DNA of 64,000 nt. Source: Escherichia phage T5. Every line of letters starts with the position of its first letter. Position 1 is the stretch's first letter. Made by a program: the position numbers and the translations under genes. The notes beneath the pieces were generated by a model, which saw only the letters and a list, made by a program, of their open reading frames with translations, ran no database searches and had not been told where the DNA came from. Shown piece by piece: positions 6,207 to 59,711 of this stretch. The stretch lies in sequence record AY692264.1; one strand, 5' to 3'.

Positions 6207-6683
6207 TCACATCTCGGCCATTTCAGCTTCAGTAATAACTGTGTTACACAATGCATCTACAGCTTCATTACCACTAATACCAGAATGTCCTTTAACCTTA
6301 ATAAAGGTAGGATTAGTATTGTGGAAGTTAATGTATTGCTGGGTTAATTTAAATGCTTCTTGCCAAAGTTCTAGATTAAGAGGAACTTCACCATCTGCTT
6401 TCTTCCAGCCTTTCCTTTGCCAAGAGAACATCCAGCTTTCCATACCATTTTTGCAATAAGCAGAATCAGTATAGATAACAATTGGTCTATTATCTTTTTT
6501 AACTGACCAACGTAGAGCTTCTACAATAGCTGTGAGTTCCATCTCATTATTTGTAGTTTTAGGACTATAACCAGATTTAGAGCCTAAACGATCGTCGTTA
6601 TCATCATAGACAATAAAACCCCAAGCACCCGGGCCAGGGTTGGACTTACAAGCGCCATCTGTATAAACATGGAAAACTGACAT
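6207..6683 (-). CDS. rnhA: ribonuclease H
   Basis: YTDGAC..NPGPGAWGF RNase HI signature; ATG start with GGAG RBS chosen over the track TTG start. Confidence 0.8.
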   Translation of the reverse strand: MSVFHVYTDGACKSNPGPGAWGFIVYDDNDDRLGSKSGYSPKTTNNEMELTAIVEALRWSVKKDNRPIVIYTDSAYCKNGMESWMFSWQRKGWKKADGEVPLNLELWQEAFKLTQQYINFHNTNPTFIKVKGHSGISGNEAVDALCNTVITEAEMAEM

Positions 6684-6734
6684 TATTTGCTCCAATTAAT
6701 AGTTACCCAATAGCCTTCACGCTAATTATGATCA

Positions 6735-7656: not shown

Positions 7657-8189
7657 TAATAAGTAACCAATTCCTGTACAAATCGCAGGCTGTTATCACT
7701 GTTTGCGCCAACTGCATAGACTAATCGAGTGGATTCATAGTTATAATCCAGTATCATACTATCTAGGTGTGTATCTGCTTCTAGTTTCTGCTCGCTAAAG
7801 ATTGTAGATACAAAAGCACTTTCAATATGCCCATGTTGGTACATTTCTAGAAGAAGATTAGCTCCACCTAGAACTACTGTTTGCTGATCTTTTAGAAAAG
7901 TAGGTAATGTATCACCTATCATTGATATGGGAGTGTAAATATCGTGTGTAATATCATCTGGCAGTGGACGATCAGCACGAATAAATAGGTCAGAAGCCCC
8001 AATCATACGTTCCCTAACGGCATATGGAAGAGCTAAATAAGTACCTGCCCCAATAATAATATTATCAGGATTTAGTACATCTAATTGTGAATAAAAAGCA
8101 TCTAGTTCTTCTTTAAAAGAACCCCAGGGAAGCTTACCTCGGAGGCCGAACTCCCCATTCGGCCCAACTGCATACATTGCTGTAATCAT
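7656..8189 (-). CDS. frd: dihydrofolate reductase
   Basis: 177 aa; N-terminal DHFR pattern (GPNGEFG..LPW); start overlaps thyA stop. Confidence 0.8.
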   Translation of the reverse strand: MITAMYAVGPNGEFGLRGKLPWGSFKEELDAFYSQLDVLNPDNIIIGAGTYLALPYAVRERMIGASDLFIRADRPLPDDITHDIYTPISMIGDTLPTFLKDQQTVVLGGANLLLEMYQHGHIESAFVSTIFSEQKLEADTHLDSMILDYNYESTRLVYAVGANSDNSLRFVQELVTY

Positions 8190-9331
8190 AGGAAATCTCC
8201 AAATTCATTGCCCAGATCTTTCAGAGTATCAGTAGAGGTCTCAGTTACCTGACCTACACGGTAGGCTGCACCAATCTGGATTTCTTGTGGAGCAGGCTGT
8301 AGAGAAGTAGTATCCAACCAGTTCATGATCCACGGAATAGGGTTTTTAGTGATTACTGGTAAGTGACTAGGCCATTCTACACCAATGTGCATAAATGCAT
8401 TACGCCCCACAAAGTACAAGTATTCTTCTAGAAGTTCTGCATTCAAACCAATCAGACTACGACCTTTGAAGATGAAATGACCCCATTCAATTTCAGTTTT
8501 CAGAGTTTTCAGGAGCTGTGCTGGTGCTTTAGCCACTGCTTCGTCTACCAGATCTTTGTCAAACTGCTGGAACATAATCTGGATGATTGCTTTAGACATC
8601 TGGGTGTGCAGAGCCTCATCTTTAGCAATTAATTGCAGATTTTTAGCAATACCTTGCAGAATATCGTTCTCTGCTAGAGCAAAAGTACATGCAAAGGATG
8701 CGTAGAACTGCATTGCTTCCAGACCGTAGATTGCAAAATAAGCGTCTAATAACTTAGCCTGAGTTTCACGTTTAACTTCAGGGAACTCAGTTTCTGGATA
8801 TGTATTGTCACCACGATGATCACGTACTGCGATGAAATACTGACCTAATTGGTACAGTTCATCGAACAGTTCAACAGAATCTGCGATACGTGCAAATGCT
8901 TCTTGGTTTTTAGTTACAGAATCAATAAATTCTGCTGGATCAGTCAGCACATTACGAATAATATTACTATAAGCACGACTATGCAGGTCTTCAAAATAGC
9001 TCCACTGCTTGAGCATACCTTCCAATTCTGGACGGCTTACAAGCGGCATAATAGCTGCTTCAGGCGCGCGACTAATGAAAGAATCTGTTTGAGTCTGCCA
9101 TGCTAAGTTCAGGAGTGTGATTTCCTGGATTTCACGTGGGAGATTGGGCCATTGTTTCTTATCTGCTTCCAGACTGATTTCAGTTTCAGTCCAAAATTGA
9201 GAGCGAGCTAATAACGCCAGCCTTTCTAGCTCTGGATGGGCTACTCGTACATAATCTGCAATACCAAGAGAATCACCGAGAAATAGATCTTTATTGGTAT
9301 GATCCCAGTTTAAGTTAAGTAAAGTTGTCAT
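8186..9331 (-). CDS. nrdB: ribonucleotide reductase class Ia beta subunit
   Basis: 381 aa; di-iron ligand motifs (DEALH); overlaps frd start by 4 nt. Confidence 0.9.
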   Translation of the reverse strand: MTTLLNLNWDHTNKDLFLGDSLGIADYVRVAHPELERLALLARSQFWTETEISLEADKKQWPNLPREIQEITLLNLAWQTQTDSFISRAPEAAIMPLVSRPELEGMLKQWSYFEDLHSRAYSNIIRNVLTDPAEFIDSVTKNQEAFARIADSVELFDELYQLGQYFIAVRDHRGDNTYPETEFPEVKRETQAKLLDAYFAIYGLEAMQFYASFACTFALAENDILQGIAKNLQLIAKDEALHTQMSKAIIQIMFQQFDKDLVDEAVAKAPAQLLKTLKTEIEWGHFIFKGRSLIGLNAELLEEYLYFVGRNAFMHIGVEWPSHLPVITKNPIPWIMNWLDTTSLQPAPQEIQIGAAYRVGQVTETSTDTLKDLGNEFGDFL

Positions 9332-13754: not shown

Positions 13755-15629
13755 ATGAATCGCAATGATGAACTAAAATACAAGGAAATGCAGTCCTTGA
13801 TTAGAAACTGCAAAGAAATTATTGAGGGTTCTGCTGATGAAGAGCTTCTCTTTAATAATGCGAATAAACCCTCTGAGCGTTTCCCTACACAAAGGGATAT
13901 GCTTGCAGGGGAATTGAGTAAATATCTGATTCTAGAAGAAATGCCAGTTCAGATTCGAAATGCTCATATGATTGGAGATATTCATTTCCATGATGCTGAC
14001 TACGCTGCATTAGGCATGACTAACTGTTGCCTAGTAGCTCTAGAAGATATGTTGAAAAATGGTATGAAAGTTGGTAATGCTGAAATTAGTACACCAAATT
14101 CTATTACTACTGCGGCGGCTATTACAGCTCAAATTATCACACAGGTTAGCTCCCATCAGTATGGTGGTACTTCTGTAGACCGATTAGATGAAGTATTGGC
14201 CCCTTATGTTCGTAAGTCTTATGATAAGAATCATGCGTTTGCAAAACGTTGGACTAAGGATGAAGCCAAAGCATCAGTAATGGCTACGGAGATGACTGAA
14301 AAAGAAGTCTATGATGCTTGTCAGGGTCTAGAGTATGAGATCAATACGATGTTCAACTCTAATGGTCAGAGTCCATTTATTACTTTTGGTTTTGGTCTAG
14401 GAACTTCTTGGGAAGCACGTCTAATACAGAAAGCAATACTGAAAGTACGTATGGATGGCTTAGGCATCAATAAACGTACAGCTATCTTTCCGAAACTGGT
14501 GTTTGTTCTGCGTGATGGCGTAAATATGAAGCCTGGAGATGTTAATTATGACATCAAGAAGTTAGCTATGAAATGTACTGCTGAACGTATGTATCCAGAC
14601 TATATCAGCTATGATAAGGTTGTGGAAGTTACTGGTGACTATAAAGTTTCTATGGGCTGCCGTTCATTCTTAGCTGCTACAGAAGATGGTGAAACTGCCG
14701 GTCGTAATAACTTGGGTGTTGTTTCTGTAAACTTGCCTAGAATTGCTATCGAAGCTGAAGGGAATATTGATCTATTCTTTGATTTGCTTGAGCTACGTGT
14801 GGATACAGCGTTAAAAGCATTGGAGTGGAGAGTTGATCGCTTAAAATACATTCAAGCTAAAGCCGCACCCATCCTCTATATGTCAGGGGCCTTTGGATTA
14901 CGCTTAGGGCCTGATGAATATGTATTCGATCATTTCTATAACCGTGCTTCTGTATCTCTGGGGTATATTGGTTGCCATGAAATGCTACAGTTCATGTTTG
15001 GCAAAGATGTAGATACAATGTCTGAGACCTGCATCAAGTTTGTTCAGCGTGTATTGCAGTACATGCGGGATAGGGTCGATCAGAAGAAGGAAGAGACTAA
15101 GTTAGGTTATAGCCTGTATGCTACACCATCAGAGTCCCTATGTGATCGCTTCTGTCGTCTAGACCGTGAATATTTTCCGGAGCATGAAGATATTCTGTCC
15201 AAAGGATACTACACTAACTCTCACCACCTTGATGTGGAACGTAAAGTTGCTCCTAACGTGAAATTTGATTACGAATCTAACTTTACTCCGATTGCTTCTG
15301 GTGGGTGTATCTCTTATGTAGAACTACCAGATATGAAACGATTCCCAGATGCACTGGAATGGGTTATTAATTATGCTGCTAGTAAGGTTCATTACTTCGG
15401 TATTAATACTCCAGTGGATTCCTGTGGTAAATGTGGATTCTTAGGTGAAACAGTAGCATCCGAAGATGGATTTAAGTGCCCTATCTGTGGTAATCATGAC
15501 CCTGAAACTCTTGAAGTAACTCGTCGAGTTTGTGGGTATCTTGGAAATCCAGGTGCTCGTCCGTTTAACCCAGGAAAACAACATGAGGTTATGGGCAGGG
15601 TGAAACATCAGGATATTCGAGCTAAATAA
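13755..15629 (+). CDS. nrdD: anaerobic ribonucleotide reductase (class III)
   Basis: 624 aa; C-terminal Zn site CPICG and glycyl-radical motif RVCGYLG; GGAGGG RBS. Confidence 0.85.
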   Translation: MNRNDELKYKEMQSLIRNCKEIIEGSADEELLFNNANKPSERFPTQRDMLAGELSKYLILEEMPVQIRNAHMIGDIHFHDADYAALGMTNCCLVALEDMLKNGMKVGNAEISTPNSITTAAAITAQIITQVSSHQYGGTSVDRLDEVLAPYVRKSYDKNHAFAKRWTKDEAKASVMATEMTEKEVYDACQGLEYEINTMFNSNGQSPFITFGFGLGTSWEARLIQKAILKVRMDGLGINKRTAIFPKLVFVLRDGVNMKPGDVNYDIKKLAMKCTAERMYPDYISYDKVVEVTGDYKVSMGCRSFLAATEDGETAGRNNLGVVSVNLPRIAIEAEGNIDLFFDLLELRVDTALKALEWRVDRLKYIQAKAAPILYMSGAFGLRLGPDEYVFDHFYNRASVSLGYIGCHEMLQFMFGKDVDTMSETCIKFVQRVLQYMRDRVDQKKEETKLGYSLYATPSESLCDRFCRLDREYFPEHEDILSKGYYTNSHHLDVERKVAPNVKFDYESNFTPIASGGCISYVELPDMKRFPDALEWVINYAASKVHYFGINTPVDSCGKCGFLGETVASEDGFKCPICGNHDPETLEVTRRVCGYLGNPGARPFNPGKQHEVMGRVKHQDIRAK

Positions 15630-15637
15630 GCTAATCA

Positions 15638-15670
15638 GCCAGGTTGCTAGTCGACCTGGCTTTTATTTTA
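15638..15670 (+). terminator. rho-independent terminator after nrdD
   Basis: Hairpin GCCAGGT-N9-ACCTGGC followed by TTTTATTTTATTT. Confidence 0.7.
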
Positions 15671-15671
15671 T

Positions 15672-15700
15672 TTGCTTTCAGCTAAAAATATATGTATAAT
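15672..15700 (+). promoter_or_regulatory. sigma70-type promoter
   Basis: TTGCTT-17-TATAAT followed by conserved leader ATAAATTTGAGGAGG. Confidence 0.6.
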
Positions 15701-15729
15701 AGATTTATAAATTTGAGGAGGTAGGAATT

Positions 15730-16110
15730 ATGACTTTAAAACCGTATATAGTGGAGTCTACGTGTGGTGGTTTCCACCTGGGTGTGGATGATATTGCTGA
15801 GGCTGTCTTTGCTGCCACAGGTGATTACTCTCATATAGAGGGTGCTGGATACCCCACCGTTATTGGTGATTGGGTGGAAACAAATCTAGATGTATCGCCT
15901 TATAACCCGTATTGCTTGTTTGATGAAGATAGAGATGAGGTAAAGTGTAATCTTGAATTTGTGTATAATAGAGTATTAAAAGTATACCAACGTAGTCCCG
16001 ATGGGTACGAAGATATTACTTGTAGTATTAAACAGTATCTTAAAGATGTATACTCTAGTTTTTCTGACGAAGACCTAGAAACAGTTGCAGTGGAGTTTAA
16101 TAATGACTAA
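15730..16110 (+). CDS. hypothetical strongly acidic protein (126 aa)
   Basis: Asp/Glu-rich, four Cys; own consensus promoter and GAGGAGG RBS. Confidence 0.6.
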   Translation: MTLKPYIVESTCGGFHLGVDDIAEAVFAATGDYSHIEGAGYPTVIGDWVETNLDVSPYNPYCLFDEDRDEVKCNLEFVYNRVLKVYQRSPDGYEDITCSIKQYLKDVYSSFSDEDLETVAVEFNND

Positions 16111-16336
16111 GAATGTGAAACACCTTAAATATCGCTTAATCTATAACGGACGTATGGAAACGGAAGAGCTAGCTCAATTAGCTATTAATTCTAATGAGGT
16201 TATGGTGCGTGCGCTAGCAATTGAAAAGTTGCGGGCTTCTTATGAAAGTCGTATTATGGAATTAGAGGAGAAACTTTATGGACTTCTTGAATCAGAAGCT
16301 AAAAGTAGTCCAGAGGGCGAGACTTCTAATCAGTAG
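16103..16336 (+). CDS. hypothetical protein (77 aa)
   Basis: Start at MTKNVKHL with GGAG RBS; overlaps previous stop by 8 nt. Confidence 0.5.
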   Translation: MTKNVKHLKYRLIYNGRMETEELAQLAINSNEVMVRALAIEKLRASYESRIMELEEKLYGLLESEAKSSPEGETSNQ

Positions 16337-16390
16337 TGGAGTAATTTTACTCCAAAATATTATCTAGGGGTTCAAGAGAGGAATCATATA

Positions 16391-17209
16391 ATGCGTAGGC
16401 TAATTATTATTAGTGGTGCAGGTTTGAGTGTTGAAAGTGGTGTACGAGCCTTCCGTACGGATACTGCTAGTGGTAAAGCATTGTGGGATGATTATGATCT
16501 AGAAGAGGTATGTAATATTCATGCCTTTCGTGGTAACTTTTATCATAAAACCCATATGTTTTACAACAAGCGACGTGAAGAGCTAAAAACTGTTGAACCT
16601 AATCTTGCGCATCTTCGTATTGGTGAATGGTATAAGAAATATCCGGGTCAAGTAGTAAATTTGACTACTAACGTTGATGACCTTATTGAGCGTGCTGGTG
16701 TTCCGCATAGTGACATTCTGCATATTCATGGGTATTTAAAAGAGGTTGTTGTAGCTGACAGCTACAATAGTAGCAATAAACGAGTTATTGATGTAGGGTA
16801 CAATTCTATTGACCCAGATGATTATAAATGGGTTAAACCTAATGTAATCTTCTTTGGTGAGCATGCTCCAGCGTACACAGAAATGTATAATATTTTTGAT
16901 GGTATTACCAGTCAAGATATGATCGTTGTAGTTGGTTGCTCTAACCAAGTAATTAACTTCTACTGGGAATTATTCCCTATTCTTAACCGTACTGCTGCGA
17001 AACTTATGGTAGTTAACTACTATGATAGTGCCCTAGCATCGAAACCAGGCTATCAAGGTATGACTCGTAGTGATATGTACCAACTGGAAGATCGTGGTAT
17101 TCCTTACTGGAGTAAAGGTGCGGTAGATGCTTTCAGTGATCCTGGTTTTATTGCTCGTGTAGAAGCTCATCTAGAGGGTAGACCTTATGTGTCAGGAAGT
17201 AAGAAATAA
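16391..17209 (+). CDS. Sir2-family (sirtuin-like) NAD-dependent protein
   Basis: GAGLSVESGVRAFR matches the sirtuin Rossmann motif GAGxSxxSGIPxFR; TTNVDDL matches the NAD-binding TQNIDxL motif. Confidence 0.75.
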   Translation: MRRLIIISGAGLSVESGVRAFRTDTASGKALWDDYDLEEVCNIHAFRGNFYHKTHMFYNKRREELKTVEPNLAHLRIGEWYKKYPGQVVNLTTNVDDLIERAGVPHSDILHIHGYLKEVVVADSYNSSNKRVIDVGYNSIDPDDYKWVKPNVIFFGEHAPAYTEMYNIFDGITSQDMIVVVGCSNQVINFYWELFPILNRTAAKLMVVNYYDSALASKPGYQGMTRSDMYQLEDRGIPYWSKGAVDAFSDPGFIARVEAHLEGRPYVSGSKK

Positions 17210-17372
17210 TGAATGGGATATTTTCATAACTGAGTCTGGCACTTGGTGCTATAGATTTGCCTATAGGTTTCCTAGTGTAAGAAAACGGCTGGGATACACA
17301 TATAAAATTATCTACACTACAGATAATATATGGTTATCCTCTGGAGATGAGGGGAAACAGATATGTCCATAG
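17187..17372 (+). CDS. small Cys-containing protein (61 aa), paralog of next ORF
   Basis: GAGGGT RBS; shares DIF..G.WCYR motif with 17363..17545. Confidence 0.4.
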   Translation: MCQEVRNNEWDIFITESGTWCYRFAYRFPSVRKRLGYTYKIIYTTDNIWLSSGDEGKQICP

Positions 17373-17545
17373 TTAAATCTGTGTATACACATCCCGATGA
17401 TATATTTGTATGGGCGGATGGTAGTTGGTGCTATCGATGTGAGCTATGGGAAATGGACTATAAATCCGATGACTATGGTGTCATATATGTTGATACAGTT
17501 GAGTATGATACGTTCTTAGAAAGGGACAAAAATGGAAATAAGTAA
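17363..17545 (+). CDS. small Cys-containing protein (60 aa), paralog of previous ORF
   Basis: GAGGGGAAA RBS; DIFVWADGSWCYR motif. Confidence 0.45.
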   Translation: MSIVKSVYTHPDDIFVWADGSWCYRCELWEMDYKSDDYGVIYVDTVEYDTFLERDKNGNK

Positions 17546-18038
17546 TACTCCAATTATTTTTCTAGACATTGATGGGGTGCTCAATTCGAGCATCTCCCAC
17601 CATCATGCACCTGATGATGAAAAGATTTTCTTTGGAAGTGACTGGGTTTTTAAACCGCTTCTCAAGGCTTTTCAGGACTTTATTCGTCCTTCTCCAATAA
17701 TGATTGTTGGGGTATCTTCATGGTTCTCTGTCAGGAATGAGATGGAGAACGTTCAGATTATGACCGGGTTAGGTCTTATAGACCGTTTTCTTGGTACAAC
17801 GGATTTTACTGGTGGTGGGCTATCTAGGGGTAATTCTGTTCTTCGCTTCGTTGAAAAGCATAAGCTCAAACATTGGTGTGTGCTGGATGATGCTGGTGCT
17901 ATGATGTATCAGTATCCAACGGTTATAGTCAATGGTAGAACTGGAATAAATCTTCAAGATTTAAGAGCTGTTAGCTATATGTTAGAATTTAGTCCAGATC
18001 TTGAAATGTGTAAAGCCCTACAACAATTTAAGGTGTAA
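17532..18038 (+). CDS. HAD-like phosphatase/phosphoesterase
   Basis: N-terminal HAD motif I FLDIDGVLN; AAGGGA RBS. Confidence 0.5.
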   Translation: MEISNTPIIFLDIDGVLNSSISHHHAPDDEKIFFGSDWVFKPLLKAFQDFIRPSPIMIVGVSSWFSVRNEMENVQIMTGLGLIDRFLGTTDFTGGGLSRGNSVLRFVEKHKLKHWCVLDDAGAMMYQYPTVIVNGRTGINLQDLRAVSYMLEFSPDLEMCKALQQFKV

Positions 18039-18040
18039 AT

Positions 18041-18469
18041 ATGTTTAATAATGTATTCTCTAAAGAAGCTAATCCAATATTGGTTAATTTTTGGCGTACT
18101 CTTCCAGCCAACCTGTACAATGAGGCTATTAATGCTCTAAAAATATGGTGTGAGAATAATGAAATCTCCTTTGCTTTTAAAGGCGAGATTGAAGAAGCTC
18201 CCTGTATTGGTTTAATTGTGCAGGTAGAGGATGGTCTTGAAGAGATTGTCGGCTGGAAAGAGTTAGATGAAATGGGCTTGGTTTTTGCATTAAACTATAA
18301 GCTGTTTATGCCTAATAAACACCGTATTGTTGTTAACTATAAAACCAGTGAATCTCCTGGCTTTCAAGTTAATGAACATTACGGTTGGTCTTACTCACCG
18401 GAAGAAGTAAATGATGGTATCCAAAAACTTCGTCGTTTTGGTTATCAAATTCCGGGTTTAACTGCCTAA
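18041..18469 (+). CDS. hypothetical protein (142 aa), tandem paralog A
   Basis: AAGGTG RBS; shares PCIG..GW.EL...GL..ALN..LF and C-terminal Y.PGL with 18479..18871. Confidence 0.55.
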   Translation: MFNNVFSKEANPILVNFWRTLPANLYNEAINALKIWCENNEISFAFKGEIEEAPCIGLIVQVEDGLEEIVGWKELDEMGLVFALNYKLFMPNKHRIVVNYKTSESPGFQVNEHYGWSYSPEEVNDGIQKLRRFGYQIPGLTA

Positions 18470-18478
18470 GGAGGCACA

Positions 18479-18871
18479 ATGGAACAAATATATTGGCGTC
18501 AGATTGATCCTAGTTTGGTGAAGTGTGCAGAGAAGCTGCTACAACGTTGGTTGGGGGTAAGACAAGCCTCCTTCACTTTTCCGGAGCAGCAAATAGACGA
18601 TCCCTGTATTGGTGTTTTCCTATCAGGCTACGCTGGGGAATGGGAATTGGATTGGAATGAATTGTCTGCTATGGGTTTAATTGTTGCACTAAATTTCTCT
18701 TTGTTCCATCCACGTGGTTTGGCTATATGTCGTGTGCCTGATGATGGTTGTTCGCCCCATCTTTTACGGGTGGAAGATGATATTTGGGAGTACACTCCAG
18801 ATACTCTCAAAGAAGCTAAAGAACAGTTAAACCGTGTTGGGATCTATGTTCCAGGCCTGAATGATGAATGA
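18479..18871 (+). CDS. hypothetical protein (130 aa), tandem paralog B
   Basis: AAGGAGG RBS; paralogous to 18041..18469. Confidence 0.55.
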   Translation: MEQIYWRQIDPSLVKCAEKLLQRWLGVRQASFTFPEQQIDDPCIGVFLSGYAGEWELDWNELSAMGLIVALNFSLFHPRGLAICRVPDDGCSPHLLRVEDDIWEYTPDTLKEAKEQLNRVGIYVPGLNDE

Positions 18872-18962
18872 TTTTTATTAGCTGAACTCTGATTACCGAG
18901 TCATTTTGGCTCGGTTTTCTCTGTACTCAAAGACACTGATAGCACCATCCGGAAAATTTTAC

Positions 18963-25277: not shown

Positions 25278-25308
25278 ATTTATATAAATTAATGAGAGAT
25301 ATAAATAA

Positions 25309-26280
25309 ATGACTAATGTAAAAGAATTTATTAAACGCTGTCAAGAAGCATATTATCAAGGCATGTCTTTAATCTCTGATGAAGAATATGATCGCCTGGT
25401 AAAACGCTTCCCGTTAGAGGAAGAGATCGGGCCTAAGGGTGATATTCCACATCTATATCGTATGTATTCTTTACAGAAAGTTTACTATAACCGTGGTGAT
25501 AAACCACCATTCAATCCTTTAGGTCAGGTGGAAACCGATAAGTTAGATGGTTGTGCAATTTCTCTGCTATATATTAACGGCGAATTTGTTCAAGCATTAA
25601 CCCGCGGTAATGGTATTCTGGGGAATGATGTCACAAGCAACGTAAGATTGCTGAACATTCCTAAAAAGATTTCCCAAAAAGTACCTACTCAAATCACTGG
25701 TGAAGTTCTAATTACAAAAGAAGTAGAAAATAAACGTAACTTTGCCTCTGGTGCTATTAACCTCAAAGATAGCGATGATTTCGTACAACGTATCGGGGAA
25801 GGTGGTTTAATCTTCGTTGCATACGGTATCCAGTGTTCTGCTGAATCTGTAGGTATTACAGAAGCATATTTAAAAGATATGCTTTGGCTAGAGAATGAGA
25901 ACTTCTTAACAGTTGTTAATGTGCGTTCCTTCTTTAAATGGATTCCGACGGACGGTAAAGTTGTTCGTATTAATGACAACAACAAATTCTTCCGTGAAGG
26001 CTGGACTAATAAATTCCCTCGTGGAGCATTCGCTATTAAAGAGGATGAAGAAGGCGAGATTACAACTCTTACTAAAGTTGAATGGCAGGTAGGGGCTTCG
26101 GGTAAAGTAACTCCAGTTGGTTATTTTGAACCGGTAATTATTGATGATGCTACAATTGTTAAAGCAACTCTTAATAACGTTGATTATATTAACTCTCTCG
26201 ATCTAGAGATCGGTTGCCAGATTCGAGTGATTCGTGCTGGTGGTGTAATCCCGTGCATAGTAGAGCGAGTATACGATTAA
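25309..26280 (+). CDS. ligA: NAD-dependent DNA ligase, N-terminal adenylation fragment
   Basis: 323 aa; KLDG adenylation motif; stops before the Zn-finger/HhH region, which is encoded by the next ORF. Confidence 0.85.
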   Translation: MTNVKEFIKRCQEAYYQGMSLISDEEYDRLVKRFPLEEEIGPKGDIPHLYRMYSLQKVYYNRGDKPPFNPLGQVETDKLDGCAISLLYINGEFVQALTRGNGILGNDVTSNVRLLNIPKKISQKVPTQITGEVLITKEVENKRNFASGAINLKDSDDFVQRIGEGGLIFVAYGIQCSAESVGITEAYLKDMLWLENENFLTVVNVRSFFKWIPTDGKVVRINDNNKFFREGWTNKFPRGAFAIKEDEEGEITTLTKVEWQVGASGKVTPVGYFEPVIIDDATIVKATLNNVDYINSLDLEIGCQIRVIRAGGVIPCIVERVYD

Positions 26281-26330
26281 TACATAACCCTTTGCTACCC
26301 ATCTACCATATCGGAATTATAAAGTGGTTA

Positions 26331-26359
26331 TTGACATTTTCGCCGCTTAGGTATATACT
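26331..26359 (+). promoter_or_regulatory. sigma70-type promoter inside ligase spacer
   Basis: TTGACA-17-TATACT; followed by an 8-codon mini-ORF with GAGGGA RBS. Confidence 0.5.
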
Positions 26360-26423
26360 ATTATCATTCAGTTGAGGGATAGAAAGTTATGGCGAGGGTA
26401 AGCAAAGTTAGTTAAAATTGTAG

Positions 26424-26452
26424 TTGCTAAATGCTTAAATACTTGCTATAAT
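26424..26452 (+). promoter_or_regulatory. sigma70-type promoter for ligase C-fragment
   Basis: TTGCTA-17-TATAAT. Confidence 0.6.
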
Positions 26453-26479
26453 ATTTATATAAATTGATAAGGAAGAAAT

Positions 26480-27262
26480 TTGATGAAAATCGAAATTCCA
26501 ACACAATGTCCCTCTTGTGGTTCTAAGCTAGATCTTGTCAACGGACAATTATTCTGTCGTAATAAGTCCAACTGTCCAGCGCAATCAAGTAAGTTAATTG
26601 AGAACTTCTGTACAAAAATGAAGTTAAAGGGCTTTGGCCCGAAAACTATTGAGAAGCTGGAGCTGACGAAGATTTCAGAACTATTTTACCTAACCGAAGA
26701 AGATTTGGTTAGAGCCGTGGGTAGCAAGGTTGCCGCTAAGTTAATTAGCGAATTAAATACTAAAGTTCGCGGAGACATTGACTTTGGTTCAGTTCTCGGT
26801 TCTTTAGGAATCCCTCTAATTGGAGAGGTTGCAGCAAAGAAATTATCCCAAAATTGCACTAGCTTTCAAGATGTGAAGGCTGACGGCAAGGCTGGAGAAA
26901 ACTATAAAGCCTGGCTAAATTCCCCACAAGGCAAGGATGTAATCGAATTACCGTGGAAATTCTCAAAGGGTATTAAGGGTGCTAAAGCTGAGGTCATCAT
27001 CACTGATGGTCTAGTAGCCCAGCCAAATGGAATCACGGTGTGTATTACCGGATCTTTGCAAGATTTTGCAAATCGAACGGATGCAACAAACTATTTAGAA
27101 GGTCTAGGATATACGGTTAAGAAATCCGTTACCAAAGACGTCAAATACCTAATCTGTGAGGATGAATCGAAGCGTTCTTCCTCATCTTATAAGAAAGCCG
27201 AAACGAATGGGATAGAAATCCTGTCGATTAAAGAACTATTGGAGAAAAATAATAATGTCTAA
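26480..27262 (+). CDS. ligB: NAD-dependent DNA ligase, C-terminal fragment
   Basis: 260 aa; Cys4 zinc finger CPSCGS...CRNKSNCPAQ, then HhH/BRCT-like region. Confidence 0.8.
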   Translation: MMKIEIPTQCPSCGSKLDLVNGQLFCRNKSNCPAQSSKLIENFCTKMKLKGFGPKTIEKLELTKISELFYLTEEDLVRAVGSKVAAKLISELNTKVRGDIDFGSVLGSLGIPLIGEVAAKKLSQNCTSFQDVKADGKAGENYKAWLNSPQGKDVIELPWKFSKGIKGAKAEVIITDGLVAQPNGITVCITGSLQDFANRTDATNYLEGLGYTVKKSVTKDVKYLICEDESKRSSSSYKKAETNGIEILSIKELLEKNNNV

Positions 27263-55738: not shown

Positions 55739-56487
55739 CTAATGTTTTCCTGTATAAAACTATTAGTTAAAGATAGTATAGTTTCTAGCTCAGAGTAGTG
55801 ACAAGTTTCGGTGTACCCATCTGGAAGGATACGTTTATCTAATACTCCTGTGTTTACTGAGTCCTTTACTACTTTTTCTAGCCCCCTAGCCATAGAACCA
55901 TAAGAAAAAGTATGAGAAAAAATTACCGAGTGCTCGCATAGTGATTTATTGCTCTGCTGCCTCATTCTCTCTAGTACATCCTTACCAGTGATCCCAAATT
56001 TTAGAAAGTGAGTCCCTTGATACGTTAATTTCTGTATATAAAAAGTAGCTGGTATATTAGGATTAAATCCTCCTGAAGCACAATCAGGACACCCTGTATC
56101 GTGATTAATAAAATGGTGTATAGACACATCCCAGATACAACCATCTTTTAAACACTTAAGTATAATCTTAGAATCTTTATTAATATAGGTGGAAGACCAA
56201 GATAGAAAGTTATATCCTTTCTCGGCACACTTACTTTTTATTTGTTCTTCTCTTTCTTCCTTCGTCCATCTAGCTTTGCCTGCGCATGCAGGGCATTTTT
56301 GGGCAGTAATCCGTAAAAAGTTATCCAACCTAGGAGACCAGGTGTAATAACATTTATTACACTTAAGTGTAAGGGTGCTTTTAATATTAGTGTACTCACC
56401 TATCCAGCCAACAAAGGATAAATTTTTATCATTGCAAATGTTGCTTATCTGAGACTCTCTATCCTGTTTAGTAATCTTCTTTCCCAT
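55735..56487 (-). CDS. zinc-ribbon protein with GIY-YIG/T5orf172-like C-terminal domain
   Basis: Two CxxC...CxxC repeats (KCNKC..CPAC; CLKDGC..CPDC); C-terminal FYIQKLTYQGTHFLKFGITG resembles GIY-YIG; stop overlaps tape-measure start; start after the terminator chosen (track TTG start 56547 lies in the hairpin). Confidence 0.5.
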   Translation of the reverse strand: MGKKITKQDRESQISNICNDKNLSFVGWIGEYTNIKSTLTLKCNKCYYTWSPRLDNFLRITAQKCPACAGKARWTKEEREEQIKSKCAEKGYNFLSWSSTYINKDSKIILKCLKDGCIWDVSIHHFINHDTGCPDCASGGFNPNIPATFYIQKLTYQGTHFLKFGITGKDVLERMRQQSNKSLCEHSVIFSHTFSYGSMARGLEKVVKDSVNTGVLDKRILPDGYTETCHYSELETILSLTNSFIQENIR

Positions 56488-56513
56488 ACTATACCAACCT
56501 ATATGTTTATAAA

Positions 56514-56545
56514 TAAAAAAGGCTCTGGGCATATCACCCAGAGCC
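56514..56545 (-). terminator. rho-independent terminator after chaperone gene
   Basis: Hairpin GGCTCTGGG-tgatatg-CCCAGAGCC followed by TTTTTT on minus strand. Confidence 0.7.
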
Positions 56546-56581
56546 AAGCCTCATCGTGGAACGCCCCATTGGAAGAAACTT

Positions 56582-56950
56582 TTACCGTGCTCGAGATTTG
56601 GCATGTGGCTTAACGTTAGGTATTCTACCGTTTTGCGGCTTATGCTTCTCAGCACGTTTACGTGCAGCGTCTACAGCTTTAGCATCAAATATATTGATAA
56701 TGTGTAGAACAAATTCTTTCTCTATAGGATCTGTAATCCCATAAATATCAAATAAAACACCTAAAGCAGCCTTGTCTTTACCTATAAAGATAGGGAAGTC
56801 ACCAGGTATGAAACAGTCAACTAGACTATTATAAATATTCATACTAATAGCTACAATAGGTGGAAAGTCTTCAAGTTCAACAGGCATGGCCTTAGGATCA
56901 GGCTCTATACCCATTGATTCACAAAGTATTAAATATTGTTGTTTAGTCAT
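56582..56950 (-). CDS. putative tail assembly chaperone
   Basis: 122 aa; between tail tube and tape measure genes. Confidence 0.4.
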   Translation of the reverse strand: MTKQQYLILCESMGIEPDPKAMPVELEDFPPIVAISMNIYNSLVDCFIPGDFPIFIGKDKAALGVLFDIYGITDPIEKEFVLHIINIFDAKAVDAARKRAEKHKPQNGRIPNVKPHAKSRAR

Positions 56951-57011
56951 TTTAGATGCTGAGCTTTTAATACACTTATCTGCAAAATCAGCAACAGCAT
57001 CTAGTAATTCT

Positions 57012-57416
57012 TTACGCTTTTGAGCTACGAAAAGTATCTAGGTGGAACACTGTCTGGTTGATCCAAGAATCAAACGCAGCAGAGTTCTGCATAAGCATTA
57101 CAGCATTATCACGACTAAATGGAACTTCAGTAGCAGGATCAGCATCTGTTTCAATCAGCATCAGTTTTTCAACGTCACCTACAGTCAAACCAGTCCAACC
57201 TTTAATCGCAGCATCAACGAAAGCTTCAATAAACTTATCATCATCCTGTACCTGAATCAAAGTACCATTAACCCACTCGTCACGCTTAGCAGAGGTGATA
57301 ACTCGTTTAGAAGTAGCACGAGACATATAATTAAGCTCTAGCTTAAAGTTTGGCATACCTGGGTATGAAAGAGTGACAGTACGAGTTTCTAAAGTAATAT
57401 CTTTTAAGTTAATCAT
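57012..57416 (-). CDS. putative tail assembly chaperone
   Basis: 134 aa; position only. Confidence 0.4.
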   Translation of the reverse strand: MINLKDITLETRTVTLSYPGMPNFKLELNYMSRATSKRVITSAKRDEWVNGTLIQVQDDDKFIEAFVDAAIKGWTGLTVGDVEKLMLIETDADPATEVPFSRDNAVMLMQNSAAFDSWINQTVFHLDTFRSSKA

Positions 57417-58316: not shown

Positions 58317-59711
58317 TTAACCACCTGCTGTTACAGTAATAACTTTAGTGCCTTTAACACCAGAGCCGTCTTTAGCCGTGGCTTCAACAGTTACCGCACC
58401 GGTTTTACTAGCATCTGCTCTTAGTAACCCTGTTGCATTGATAGTAGCTGCATCACCGGCAGTGATAGCCCAAGTAACTTCCTTATTCCTTGCGGAAGAA
58501 GGAGTAACTTCAACACTCATCTGAAGAGTAGCTGATCGATTTAATGTAGTAACATTTCCAGCAGACTTAACAGTAATTGCGGTTACAGCATCAGTAGCAC
58601 CGTCACCATTAACAATTAGATTATTAATAGTTGTTCTAGTATACTTACTAGAGAAGCCTAAGTAACCTTCGTCACCAGCATCCAGATCTGACGGAATAGC
58701 CTTAAATTCTACTGAAGTACCAAGTACATCATCAGTCTCAATAGTAGGAATATTAACGTGCGCCTGTTTAGCTACTAGAATAGCTGCAGGACGTTCATCA
58801 TCATACTCGCCACCAAGTACTAGGGCGATTTCAAAGCGGTTAACTACCTTCAGAGTTTTGATAAGATCTTTATACAGTTCCATAGAACCAAGAGATTTAT
58901 CATTCAGGTAAGCAGTTAATGAACCAGTTAATTCAAAAGCACCAGTAAAGGAACCAATTGGAATAGTAACACGGGACATTACATTAGGTGTTAGGTAAGT
59001 AATGTTGTTGTTAATAGTAAAAGTACCACCGGTAATTGGTATATCATAAGACTTATTGGTATCCATGTCCTTGATCTTCAAGATCGTTAGTTTGTTTTTA
59101 ATGTAAGAACCCTGGATAGTCATATAAGTTTCATCATCAATACCTATTTGATCTGGATCAAATGGTTGCTCATCCAGTGGGATTAGCTGGTTACCATTAC
59201 CAGACCAAGTTACACGACCAATATCTTCAATATCAACGTTAACTTCTGCCTGATTAATCTGACAGGAATCGATATAACTCCACGTTTTATCAGTCAGAAT
59301 GTAAATATGTAGCATTGCTAACTCATGATAGGAATTATCTTTAAAGTTAACCATGAAGTTAGTAGCATTATTATGTGCTCCAGTAGTTCCTTCAAGATTA
59401 ATAGCTCTACCACTAGAAAGTGCATGCCATAACATATAGTCAGGAACAATTTGTTTGCTAGTATTTTTATCTTTATACGGCAGGATATAAGTAGAGAAAC
59501 TCCACTCAGCTGCGTTTAAAGAGTCGTTAAAACGTTTAGAACCACGAGTTGGACGCGGACCAGCTTCATTAACAGTAATATCTGTTGAGTTACTGTCCTG
59601 ACCCCAAGAAATATCATCCTGAACTAGAATCTCTTGCGTGTTGGTCTTATTATGACCAGTCTTAACCGTAGACACGAAGATTCGAGTATTACGTAATAGT
59701 TGTAAAGACAT
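58317..59711 (-). CDS. major tail tube protein (T5 pb6-like) with C-terminal Ig-like domain
   Basis: 464 aa; C-terminal BIG2-like region (VTVEATAKDGSGVKGTKVITVTAGG). Confidence 0.8.
   Translation of the reverse strand: MSLQLLRNTRIFVSTVKTGHNKTNTQEILVQDDISWGQDSNSTDITVNEAGPRPTRGSKRFNDSLNAAEWSFSTYILPYKDKNTSKQIVPDYMLWHALSSGRAINLEGTTGAHNNATNFMVNFKDNSYHELAMLHIYILTDKTWSYIDSCQINQAEVNVDIEDIGRVTWSGNGNQLIPLDEQPFDPDQIGIDDETYMTIQGSYIKNKLTILKIKDMDTNKSYDIPITGGTFTINNNITYLTPNVMSRVTIPIGSFTGAFELTGSLTAYLNDKSLGSMELYKDLIKTLKVVNRFEIALVLGGEYDDERPAAILVAKQAHVNIPTIETDDVLGTSVEFKAIPSDLDAGDEGYLGFSSKYTRTTINNLIVNGDGATDAVTAITVKSAGNVTTLNRSATLQMSVEVTPSSARNKEVTWAITAGDAATINATGLLRADASKTGAVTVEATAKDGSGVKGTKVITVTAGG

Follow-up and report, generated by a model that had tools for sequence, protein, structure and literature searches.

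Analysis of a 64,000-nucleotide stretch of the Escherichia phage T5 genome (record AY692264.1; the window, below, means this whole stretch) suggests that its gene T5.102 may encode an active, zinc-independent, class-III-type deacylase dependent on nicotinamide adenine dinucleotide (NAD+), with an accessory early function that is probably tied to the repair of RNA or translation. We give this reading a probability of about 45%. In the proposed mechanism T5.102 would be expressed from an early operon of T5, bind NAD+, release nicotinamide and pass ADP-ribose to an oxygen nucleophile held in the acyl tunnel. The most likely substrate would be an acylated lysine, probably of the succinyl or malonyl type as well as acetyl, on host or phage proteins that would be deacylated early in infection, and the process served would be one that mends RNA, tRNA or components of translation, or shields them from host nucleases. 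A deacylase-type reaction is favoured because the nearest characterised relatives are lysine deacylases and because the catalytic His, the YxxR motif and the tunnel residues are conserved, while the role in RNA or translation repair is suggested by conserved neighbours that are RNA-end-healing enzymes. The gene, its zinc-less state and both functional hypotheses (deacetylase and Tpt1-like) are already present in databases and papers; beyond the study of Iyer et al. (2022; PMC9503650), the present analysis adds residue conservation, pocket mapping, a tree of zinc loss, linkage after rearrangement, allele exchange and deletion variants.

The original prediction, made from the letters alone, had called the open reading frame at 16391-17209 a phage-encoded Sir2-like protein, and this is the annotated T5.102 of phage T5. 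The 2.4-kb stretch around the gene is 100% identical to AY543070/NC_005859 (window coordinates equal those of AY543070 minus 40056), in which coding sequence 56447-57265 has carried the GenBank label 'putative Sir2-like protein' since 2004 together with the note 'NAD-dependent deacetylase, ADP-ribosylase, transcription regulator'. The assignment to the sirtuin fold, with NAD binding, is supported by a match to Pfam SIR2 (PF02146) of 87.8 bits (cutoff 24; E = 1.1e-24) that covers profile positions 1-178 of 180, no further Pfam domain being matched in the protein, and by a match to PHROG 2162 'Sir2' at E = 4e-121. The best solved structure by sequence is Escherichia coli CobB (PDB 1s5p), found at E = 1.4e-17 with the single sequence and at E = 1.2e-31 with a profile of 66 clade sequences. 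The AlphaFold2 model, with a predicted local distance difference test score (pLDDT) of 91.7 and a predicted template-modelling score of 0.90, consists of a Rossmann large domain and a small domain, and when compared with the PDB by Foldseek it again places CobB at the top (E = 9e-18, template-modelling score 0.86 on the target); Sir2Af1, SIRT5, Sir2Tm and SIRT2 come next, in that order. The 50 best structural matches in the PDB are all canonical deacylase sirtuins with no defence SIR2 among them, and T5.102 matched 0 of the 5027 defence models of PADLOC. Since the NCBIfam models for CobB also remain below their cutoffs, T5.102 represents a distinct phage clade of class-III-like sirtuins that is neither orthologous to CobB nor related to the NAD-depleting immune SIR2 proteins. 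In ten unusually long relatives the only fused domains are RHS and WG repeats; RNA- or NAD-related fused domains are absent from these ten.

To assess conservation, 120 close homologues (49-94% identity) and 150 representatives of distant relatives were collected and 264 sequences aligned, with the close clade counted on 121 sequences and the distant set on 143 representatives. Every NAD+-binding or catalytic position of characterised sirtuins is invariant in the 121 close sequences, among them G114, F155 and E157 of an FGE motif, G182 and S184 of a GxS motif, and N209. Altogether some 45 positions are invariant in the clade, across homologues with identities down to 49% and several phage families. 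The GAGLSVESGVRAFR signature and the TTNVDDL motif that had first indicated a sirtuin are both present, with invariant NAD-pocket residues, and the catalytic His then predicted is H113, likewise invariant. Missing catalytic residues had been named as grounds for abandoning the assignment; the alignment has all of them in place.

The invariant YxxR pair bears directly on the likely substrate, as in CobB and SIRT5 this pair recognises succinyl- and malonyl-lysine, that is, negatively charged acyl groups. The titles of two PDB entries for engineered CobB (6rxm and 6rxs) name A76, Y92, I131, V162 and V187 as acyl-specificity positions. When CobB was mapped onto T5.102 by profile alignment, A76 corresponded to C41 (itself invariant), Y92 to Y58, R95 to R61, I131 to V95 and V187 to V152, which suggests that the CobB-type lysine-acyl tunnel is essentially preserved. 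In sirtuins access to the buried C1'' of NAD+ is by way of a narrow tunnel that suits the side chain of lysine. The T5.102 clade is also acidic, with a median isoelectric point of 5.2 and a net charge of -12, and in this it resembles many soluble protein-modifying enzymes and differs from typical RNA-binding enzymes. The earlier description of T5.102 as a 'divergent sirtuin' is only partly apt: the zinc cysteines are gone, but the catalytic core is not very divergent, because the class III YxxR pair and the CobB acyl pocket are retained.

That no Cys4 module is evident, as the original prediction observed, is borne out in detail. T5.102 has only two cysteines, C41 and C183, and both lie outside the H113-F154 insert in which CobB bears its zinc cysteines; residues 114-153 contain neither Cys nor His. 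The insert is of normal length (median 39 residues), and in every one of the 121 close homologues it holds 0-2 Cys, as against at least four in 83 of the 143 distant representatives, many of which show CxxC...CxxC around the same 'IGY...KPNV' core. In the AlphaFold2 model the three-stranded sheet of the small domain is kept (strands 114-122, 131-134 and 147-152, lying in blocks whose pLDDT averages 92-98), and because this predicted sheet persists, the zinc ligands appear to have been lost while the small-domain module was retained. A quick neighbour-joining tree of 257 sequences, built without branch support, places the uniformly zinc-less T5-type clade (125 sequences) within a broader grouping, most of whose members are zinc-less; the sister of this grouping comprises 85 sequences, 78 of them Cys4, and at least six changes of state are needed overall. 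By cluster look-up, the distant zinc-containing relatives are almost solely metagenomic sequences. Absence of the zinc ligands has already been reported for the sirtuins of phages KVP40 and phiSt2, in a study that lists T5 as a carrier (PMC5107563).

Table 1. Position in the window of T5.102, its motifs, and the genes and signals of its operon
Feature	Residues	Position	Strand	Remarks
T5.102 sirtuin gene	272 in all	16391..17209	+	ATG start; single Sir2 domain and C-terminal extension of ~60 residues
Shine-Dalgarno-like AGAGGA		16377..16382	+	8 nt 5' of the T5.102 ATG; read from sequence
NAD phosphate-binding and cofactor loop, GAGLSVESGVRAFR	9-22	16415..16456	+	G9, A10, G11, S13, S16, G17, F21 and R22 invariant in clade
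Class-III Y58-x-x-R61 pair	58-61	16562..16573	+	Invariant in 121/121; equivalent to CobB Y92/R95 (Y53/R56 of 1s5p)
TTNVDDL motif	92-98	16664..16684	+	N94 and D96 of nicotinamide-ribose pocket, invariant
Catalytic His113 (HG motif)	113	16727..16729	+	Equivalent to CobB H147 (H108 of 1s5p); invariant in 263/264 relatives
Small-domain insert in place of Cys4 zinc ribbon	114-153	16730..16849	+	DVGY...KPNV core kept
T5.100 and T5.101		15730..16336	+	First operon genes; no assignable function; replaced in S113
T5.103 and T5.104		17187..17545	+	Small paralogous open reading frames of ~60 residues; DGxWCYR motif; both phrog_5116
T5.105, HAD_SAK_2 phosphatase		17532..18038	+	DIDGV motif I (nucleophile motif DxDGV); Pfam PF18143, 73 bits (cutoff 27.5)
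T5.106 and T5.107		18041..18871	+	Paralogues, two DUF7415 repeats each; PF24187, 114 and 105 bits; phrog_2502; last operon genes
Intrinsic terminator 3' of nrdD		15637..15661	+	Strong; 10-bp stem and T-run
Intrinsic terminator closing T5.100-T5.107		18895..18915	+	9-bp stem and T-run; GenBank terminator 58952-58976

The accessory nature of T5.102 is suggested by its loss from some T5-like phages and by the lateral exchange of its alleles. Between T5 and Salmonella phage S113, PhoH, NrdD, the HAD protein and the origin-binding protein are 92-97% identical and Sir2 only 52%, within a mosaic locus (contig L017, 3131-4514, compared with window 15730-17545) where T5.100, T5.101 and T5.103 are replaced. 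The converse is seen in a divergent T5-like contig, L009, whose flanks are 33-61% identical to T5 and whose Sir2 is 69% identical. The T5 Sir2 is also nearer to myovirus alleles (KpS11, 62%; nomo, 58%) than to that of S113. Because the phylogeny of the alleles is decoupled from the phage backbone, Sir2 alleles appear from these comparisons to have been exchanged laterally between virulent enterobacterial phage families, which is a new point of this analysis. In DT57C (NC_027356.1, 46514-46762) and SelmaRatti (MZ501103.1, 49629-49784) only fragments of Sir2 (residues 169-233) and of the HAD protein (its C-terminal 40-50 residues) are left, so the module is evidently dispensable for the propagation of these two phages. 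The two fragments lie side by side and are annotated as one 'Sir2' gene; these phages are natural loss-of-function variants.

In T5 itself, T5.100-T5.107 form one early operon, as judged from the flanking terminators, an annotated early promoter (a GenBank feature at ~15652-15726, downstream of nrdD) and overlapping stop and start codons; T5.103 overlaps the 3' end of the Sir2 gene by 23 nt. The family to which T5.105 belongs is described in Pfam as 'HAD domain in Swiss Army Knife RNA repair proteins', and reportedly goes back to work by Burroughs and Aravind in 2016. A phmmer search of the PDB with T5.105 gave no match, and its model from a single sequence (pLDDT 42.6) was unusable. The seven other operon proteins contain no Macro domain, and among the annotated genes of T5 there is no RNA ligase, polynucleotide kinase, NAMPT or Macro domain, while tRNA genes number 24. 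The small genes T5.103 and T5.104 were considered as a universal partner of Sir2 and rejected, being confined to Demerecviridae-type loci. Nor is there a signal of recent foreign origin for the operon, in which G+C content is flat at 0.36-0.42.

Neighbourhoods in other phages follow a similar pattern. In Vequintavirus nomo, phosphoesterases, Rnl1 and cREC precede Sir2 and the locus adjoins a tRNA cluster; in Mydovirus KpS11 the order is phosphoesterase, RNA ligase, cREC, two small open reading frames, Sir2 and DNA ligase, with MazG further on; and a metagenomic contig (L010) has Rnl1, cREC, an AAA_33 kinase and Sir2. In jumbo phage BF, NMNAT-Nudix and NAMPT lie upstream of a run made up of a 2H protein, a small open reading frame, Sir2 and a Nudt16-like fusion of Nudix with cREC. 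The divergent T5-like contigs L009 and L011 lack the DUF7415 genes and have HAD_SAK_2 still beside Sir2, now upstream, so the Sir2-HAD pairing survives rearrangement with inverted order. These HAD_SAK, Rnl1-cREC and 2H/Nudix types, which are independent of one another, are the three configurations of Iyer et al. (PMC9503650), who concluded that the majority of viral sirtuins make up a clade of their own whose members act on RNA 2'-phosphates in the manner of KptA/Tpt1. T5.102 has the neighbourhood that marks that clade, with RNA-end-processing neighbours and no adjacent Macro domain. The exceptions are contig L007, where DNA ligase, MazG, NADAR and NAPRTase with Prs lie near Sir2 and there is no RNA ligase, and Phapecoctavirus ukendt, in which no neighbour of Sir2 could be assigned.

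Several annotations at these loci differ from what domain searches return. In Serratia phage BF (L003), the 148-residue 'RNA ligase' at 6281-6727, upstream of Sir2, passes the Pfam Acb1 model at 56 bits (Acb1 is a 2H phosphodiesterase directed against the cyclic oligonucleotide-based antiphage signalling system); the 'nudix hydrolase' at 7763-8671, downstream of Sir2, is the Nudt16-like Nudix domain fused to cREC, and the upstream 'cytidyltransferase' is the NMNAT-Nudix fusion adjoining NAMPT. Vequintavirinae-like phages have a NAPRTase-family gene paired with a ribose-phosphate pyrophosphokinase, located on the strand opposite to Sir2 and 2.5-5 kb upstream of it, and L007 and L010 have a NADAR-domain gene ~6 kb downstream of Sir2 (pair and NADAR regions: L005, 1-1133; L007, 1738-4498 and 13647-14198; L010, 1-1581 and 12107-12637). 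This gene pair is similar to the one for NAD reconstitution in phages that is treated in PMC11482910 and PMC13464706.

A number of observations weigh against T5.102 being a deacylase. The NCBIfam models for CobB and related deacylases score it far under their cutoffs (at best 101.6 against 243 for NF001753 and 91.8 against 320 for NF040867). In place of the usual Gln of TQNxD, the clade has an invariant T93, where 86 of the 143 distant relatives have Gln. The VYP loop with which CobB contacts the substrate backbone is V187-I188-N189 in T5.102, fixed in the clade, and because this loop has changed and the zinc ligands are gone, peptide binding may differ from that of CobB. The absence of the zinc ligands is itself an argument on this side, as is the conserved context, which points to RNA ends and not to an acyl-protein pathway. 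In the literature searched we found no biochemical report or experimental follow-up for any member of the phage clade, and we know of no plausible protein target for T5.102. Were T5.102 a simple CobB-like deacylase, virulent phages would be editing the acyl-proteome of the host or phage early in infection.

The strongest competitor to the deacylase reading, possible although less probable, is that of Iyer, Burroughs, Anantharaman and Aravind (2022; PMC9503650), who predict that the sirtuin is an analogue of Tpt1/KptA: it would ADP-ribosylate the RNA 2'-phosphate left by an opened 2',3'-cyclic phosphate, and the phosphate would leave as ADP-ribose 1'',2''-cyclic phosphate, completing the repair of tRNAs cut by host anticodon nucleases, while the HAD, cREC, 2H and Nudix neighbours process ends or the by-product. 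In favour of this published prediction are the neighbourhoods recovered here: HAD_SAK_2 stands beside Sir2 in T5-like phages even where the order is inverted, Vequintavirus- and Mydovirus-like phages have Rnl1-cREC-(AAA_33 kinase)-Sir2 together with tRNA genes and phosphoesterases, 2H-x-Sir2-Nudix/cREC occurs in BF, and no Macro domain is adjacent. The chemistry is parallel, with an oxyanion attacking C1'' of NAD+ and the ribose 2''-OH attacking thereafter, and the invariant Y58/R61 pair, which binds anions, could hold a phosphate. All the same, the argument is one of guilt by association, and the narrow CobB-type lysine tunnel, which is conserved, would accommodate a thin side chain more readily than the 2'-phosphate of a ribose. 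The acidity of the clade also speaks against an RNA substrate, and we know of no sirtuin that acts on nucleic acid.

Further points against the Tpt1-like proposal come from the genomes. No RNA ligase or polynucleotide kinase with which to finish the repair is annotated in T5, the E. coli host already encodes KptA, L007 and ukendt have no recognisable RNA-repair neighbour, and Sir2 alleles swap independently of the HAD gene. Homologues of KptA itself occur as separate genes in 98 phage records, mostly of jumbo phages, and in the three neighbourhoods examined no recognisable RNA-repair domain flanks them, a result that counts neither for nor against the Tpt1 analogy. It is somewhat doubtful, yet conceivable, that the T5-type zinc-free sirtuins are the first sirtuins with nucleic acid as their physiological substrate, removing 2'-phosphates with NAD+ from tRNA or mRNA that has been broken or religated; they would then be a non-homologous replacement of Tpt1/KptA and would form, with HAD, cREC, 2H and Nudix proteins, a widespread phage kit for undoing the anticodon-nuclease immunity of the host. 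If so, sirtuin chemistry would extend to RNA, and RNA repair by phages would gain a new branch that counters tRNA-cleaving immunity. As T5 is genetically tractable and DT57C and SelmaRatti provide natural deletion variants, both ideas are directly testable.

We consider it unlikely that T5.102 is, like SirTM, SIRT4 or SIRT6 in some contexts, a mono-ADP-ribosyltransferase, one that would modify a host protein or other host macromolecule and redirect host metabolism or translation. In favour are the intact NAD pocket, the common use of ADP-ribosylation by phages (PMC9503650) and the mention of an 'ADP-ribosylase' in the GenBank note on T5.102; however, T5.102 is nearest to efficient deacylases, SirTM appears neither in the 60 listed sequence matches nor in the top 50 structural matches, there is no linked Macro domain, the defining trait of SirTM systems, and the catalytic His and YxxR pair are retained.

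Slightly less probable still is an NAD+ glycohydrolase or counter-defence factor directed at Thoeris-, SIR2- or TIR-type immunity through the NAD+ pool or NAD-derived signals. Such a role would suit the mosaic, laterally exchanged alleles, which are typical of host-interaction genes, the Acb1-like 2H protein directly upstream of Sir2 in BF, and the NAPRTase-Prs pair or NADAR gene found within a few kb of some myovirus and jumbo phage sirtuins. Set against this, T5 itself has no NAD-salvage or anti-signal neighbours, no defence SIR2 model in PADLOC is matched, canonical sirtuins hydrolyse NAD+ poorly when no acyl substrate is present, and depletion of NAD+ would harm T5 because the phage needs NAD+ for its own split DNA ligase. 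The suggestion in the original prediction that the protein interferes with NAD-based immunity thus finds little favour, given the missing defence matches, a structure like that of deacylases, and partners concerned with RNA ends and not with NAD signals. That T5.102 is a decaying or non-catalytic relic, as the lost zinc site and the deletions in some T5-like phages might imply, is highly improbable in the face of the ~45 invariant positions, every catalytic residue included, across several phage families, the predicted fold of high confidence and the breadth of its occurrence.

Homologues of T5.102 are present in 999 of 50,697 phage records (~2%), and the clade is common in virulent enterobacterial phages; hundreds of these records label the protein Sir2, CobB or NAD-dependent deacetylase. 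Among 5,426 complete E. coli genomes there is no match at the DNA level, and cellular Sir2 proteins carried on plasmids reach no more than 37% identity. The sole close 'plasmid' match, CP057073.1 ('E. coli plasmid', 137,565 bp), has a Sir2 58% identical to T5.102 in a record that resembles a Vequintavirus genome. This record and the 'Campylobacter phages' C13 and A110a (MG065692.1 and MG065689.1) hold T5-like or rV5-like sequence, C13 matching the T5 operon with 87.5% identity across 98% of the query, and their host or replicon labels are probably wrong.

Some annotations within and around the T5 operon also deserve comment. T5.105 is tagged 'Sir2 (NAD-dependent deacetylase)' in RefSeq NC_005859 and in many T5-like records. 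The apparent cause is phrog_18062, a family of 92 residues named Sir2 that matches residues 77-168 of the HAD protein strongly (E = 3.5e-58) and residues 168-216 of the true Sir2 weakly, and was seemingly built on Sir2-HAD deletion remnants. For nrdD (T5.099, 13755-15629), the GenBank start (record 53961, window 13905) falls on an in-frame Ala codon, and translation from the ATG at 13755 gives 624 residues, the length of the annotated NrdD of S113 (1875 nt), so that the start annotated for T5 is probably misplaced by 50 codons. The NAD-dependent DNA ligase of T5, which makes the phage itself a consumer of NAD+, is split into ligA and ligB (T5.116/T5.117, 25308-27261), each with its own annotated promoter or promoters. 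The PhageMaP results for Bas63 g84/g85 were considered as experimental data on the cluster and set aside, since these genes encode unrelated membrane proteins that counter QatABCD.

Compared with known systems, T5.102 has the Rossmann core and the absence of a zinc site in common with the defence SIR2 NADases (ThsA, DSR1/2, SIR2-HerA and SPARSA); unlike them, it has no sensor or partner domain (SLOG, HerA, pAgo or the long C-terminal domain of DSR) and no such neighbours, and retains a His and an acyl pocket of the deacylase type. SirTM is macrodomain-linked, while the T5.102 operon is without a Macro domain. With Tpt1/KptA there is a possible functional analogy, in ADP-ribosyl transfer to an oxyanion, attack by the 2''-OH and association with RNA-repair genes, but no homology, the Tpt1/KptA fold being ART-like and that of T5.102 a Rossmann sirtuin.

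Closer comparison is offered by the deacylases. Human and zebrafish SIRT5, a desuccinylase and demalonylase, shares with T5.102 the class III fold and the YxxR motif and matches it strongly over residues 2-120; it is zinc-dependent and mitochondrial, and the similarity is weaker in the C-terminal half. E. coli CobB (PDB 1s5p and 6rxj) has the same NAD motifs, catalytic His, Y92/R95 pair and acyl-pocket residues, whereas T5.102, only ~24% identical to it, lacks the Cys4 zinc ligands, has Thr for the Gln of TQNID and VIN for VYP, carries an extra C-terminal segment of ~60 residues and is phage-encoded, in an RNA-repair-type operon.

Among phage proteins, the Sir2/CobB sirtuins of Vibrio phages KVP40, phiSt2 and phiGrn1 likewise keep the His without the zinc ligands but, unlike T5.102, are paired with NAMPT/NMNAT synthesis of NAD (Skliros et al. 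2016, PMC5107563); the tblastn matches of T5.102 include, at ~41% identity, Vibrio jumbo or schizoT4-like phages. For those sirtuins Skliros et al. proposed activation of host Acs by deacetylation, on the basis of in silico work and transcript profiling only (PMC5107563). The nearest counterpart is phage SP15, which stands for type 3 in the clade of RNA-repair sirtuins that Iyer et al. described (2022; PMC9503650). T5.102 is a member of that clade, with no difference in kind, and shows the same linkage to HAD_SAK, and the Sir2-HAD region of the T5-like SP15 is ~94% identical to that of T5 over 96% of the query.

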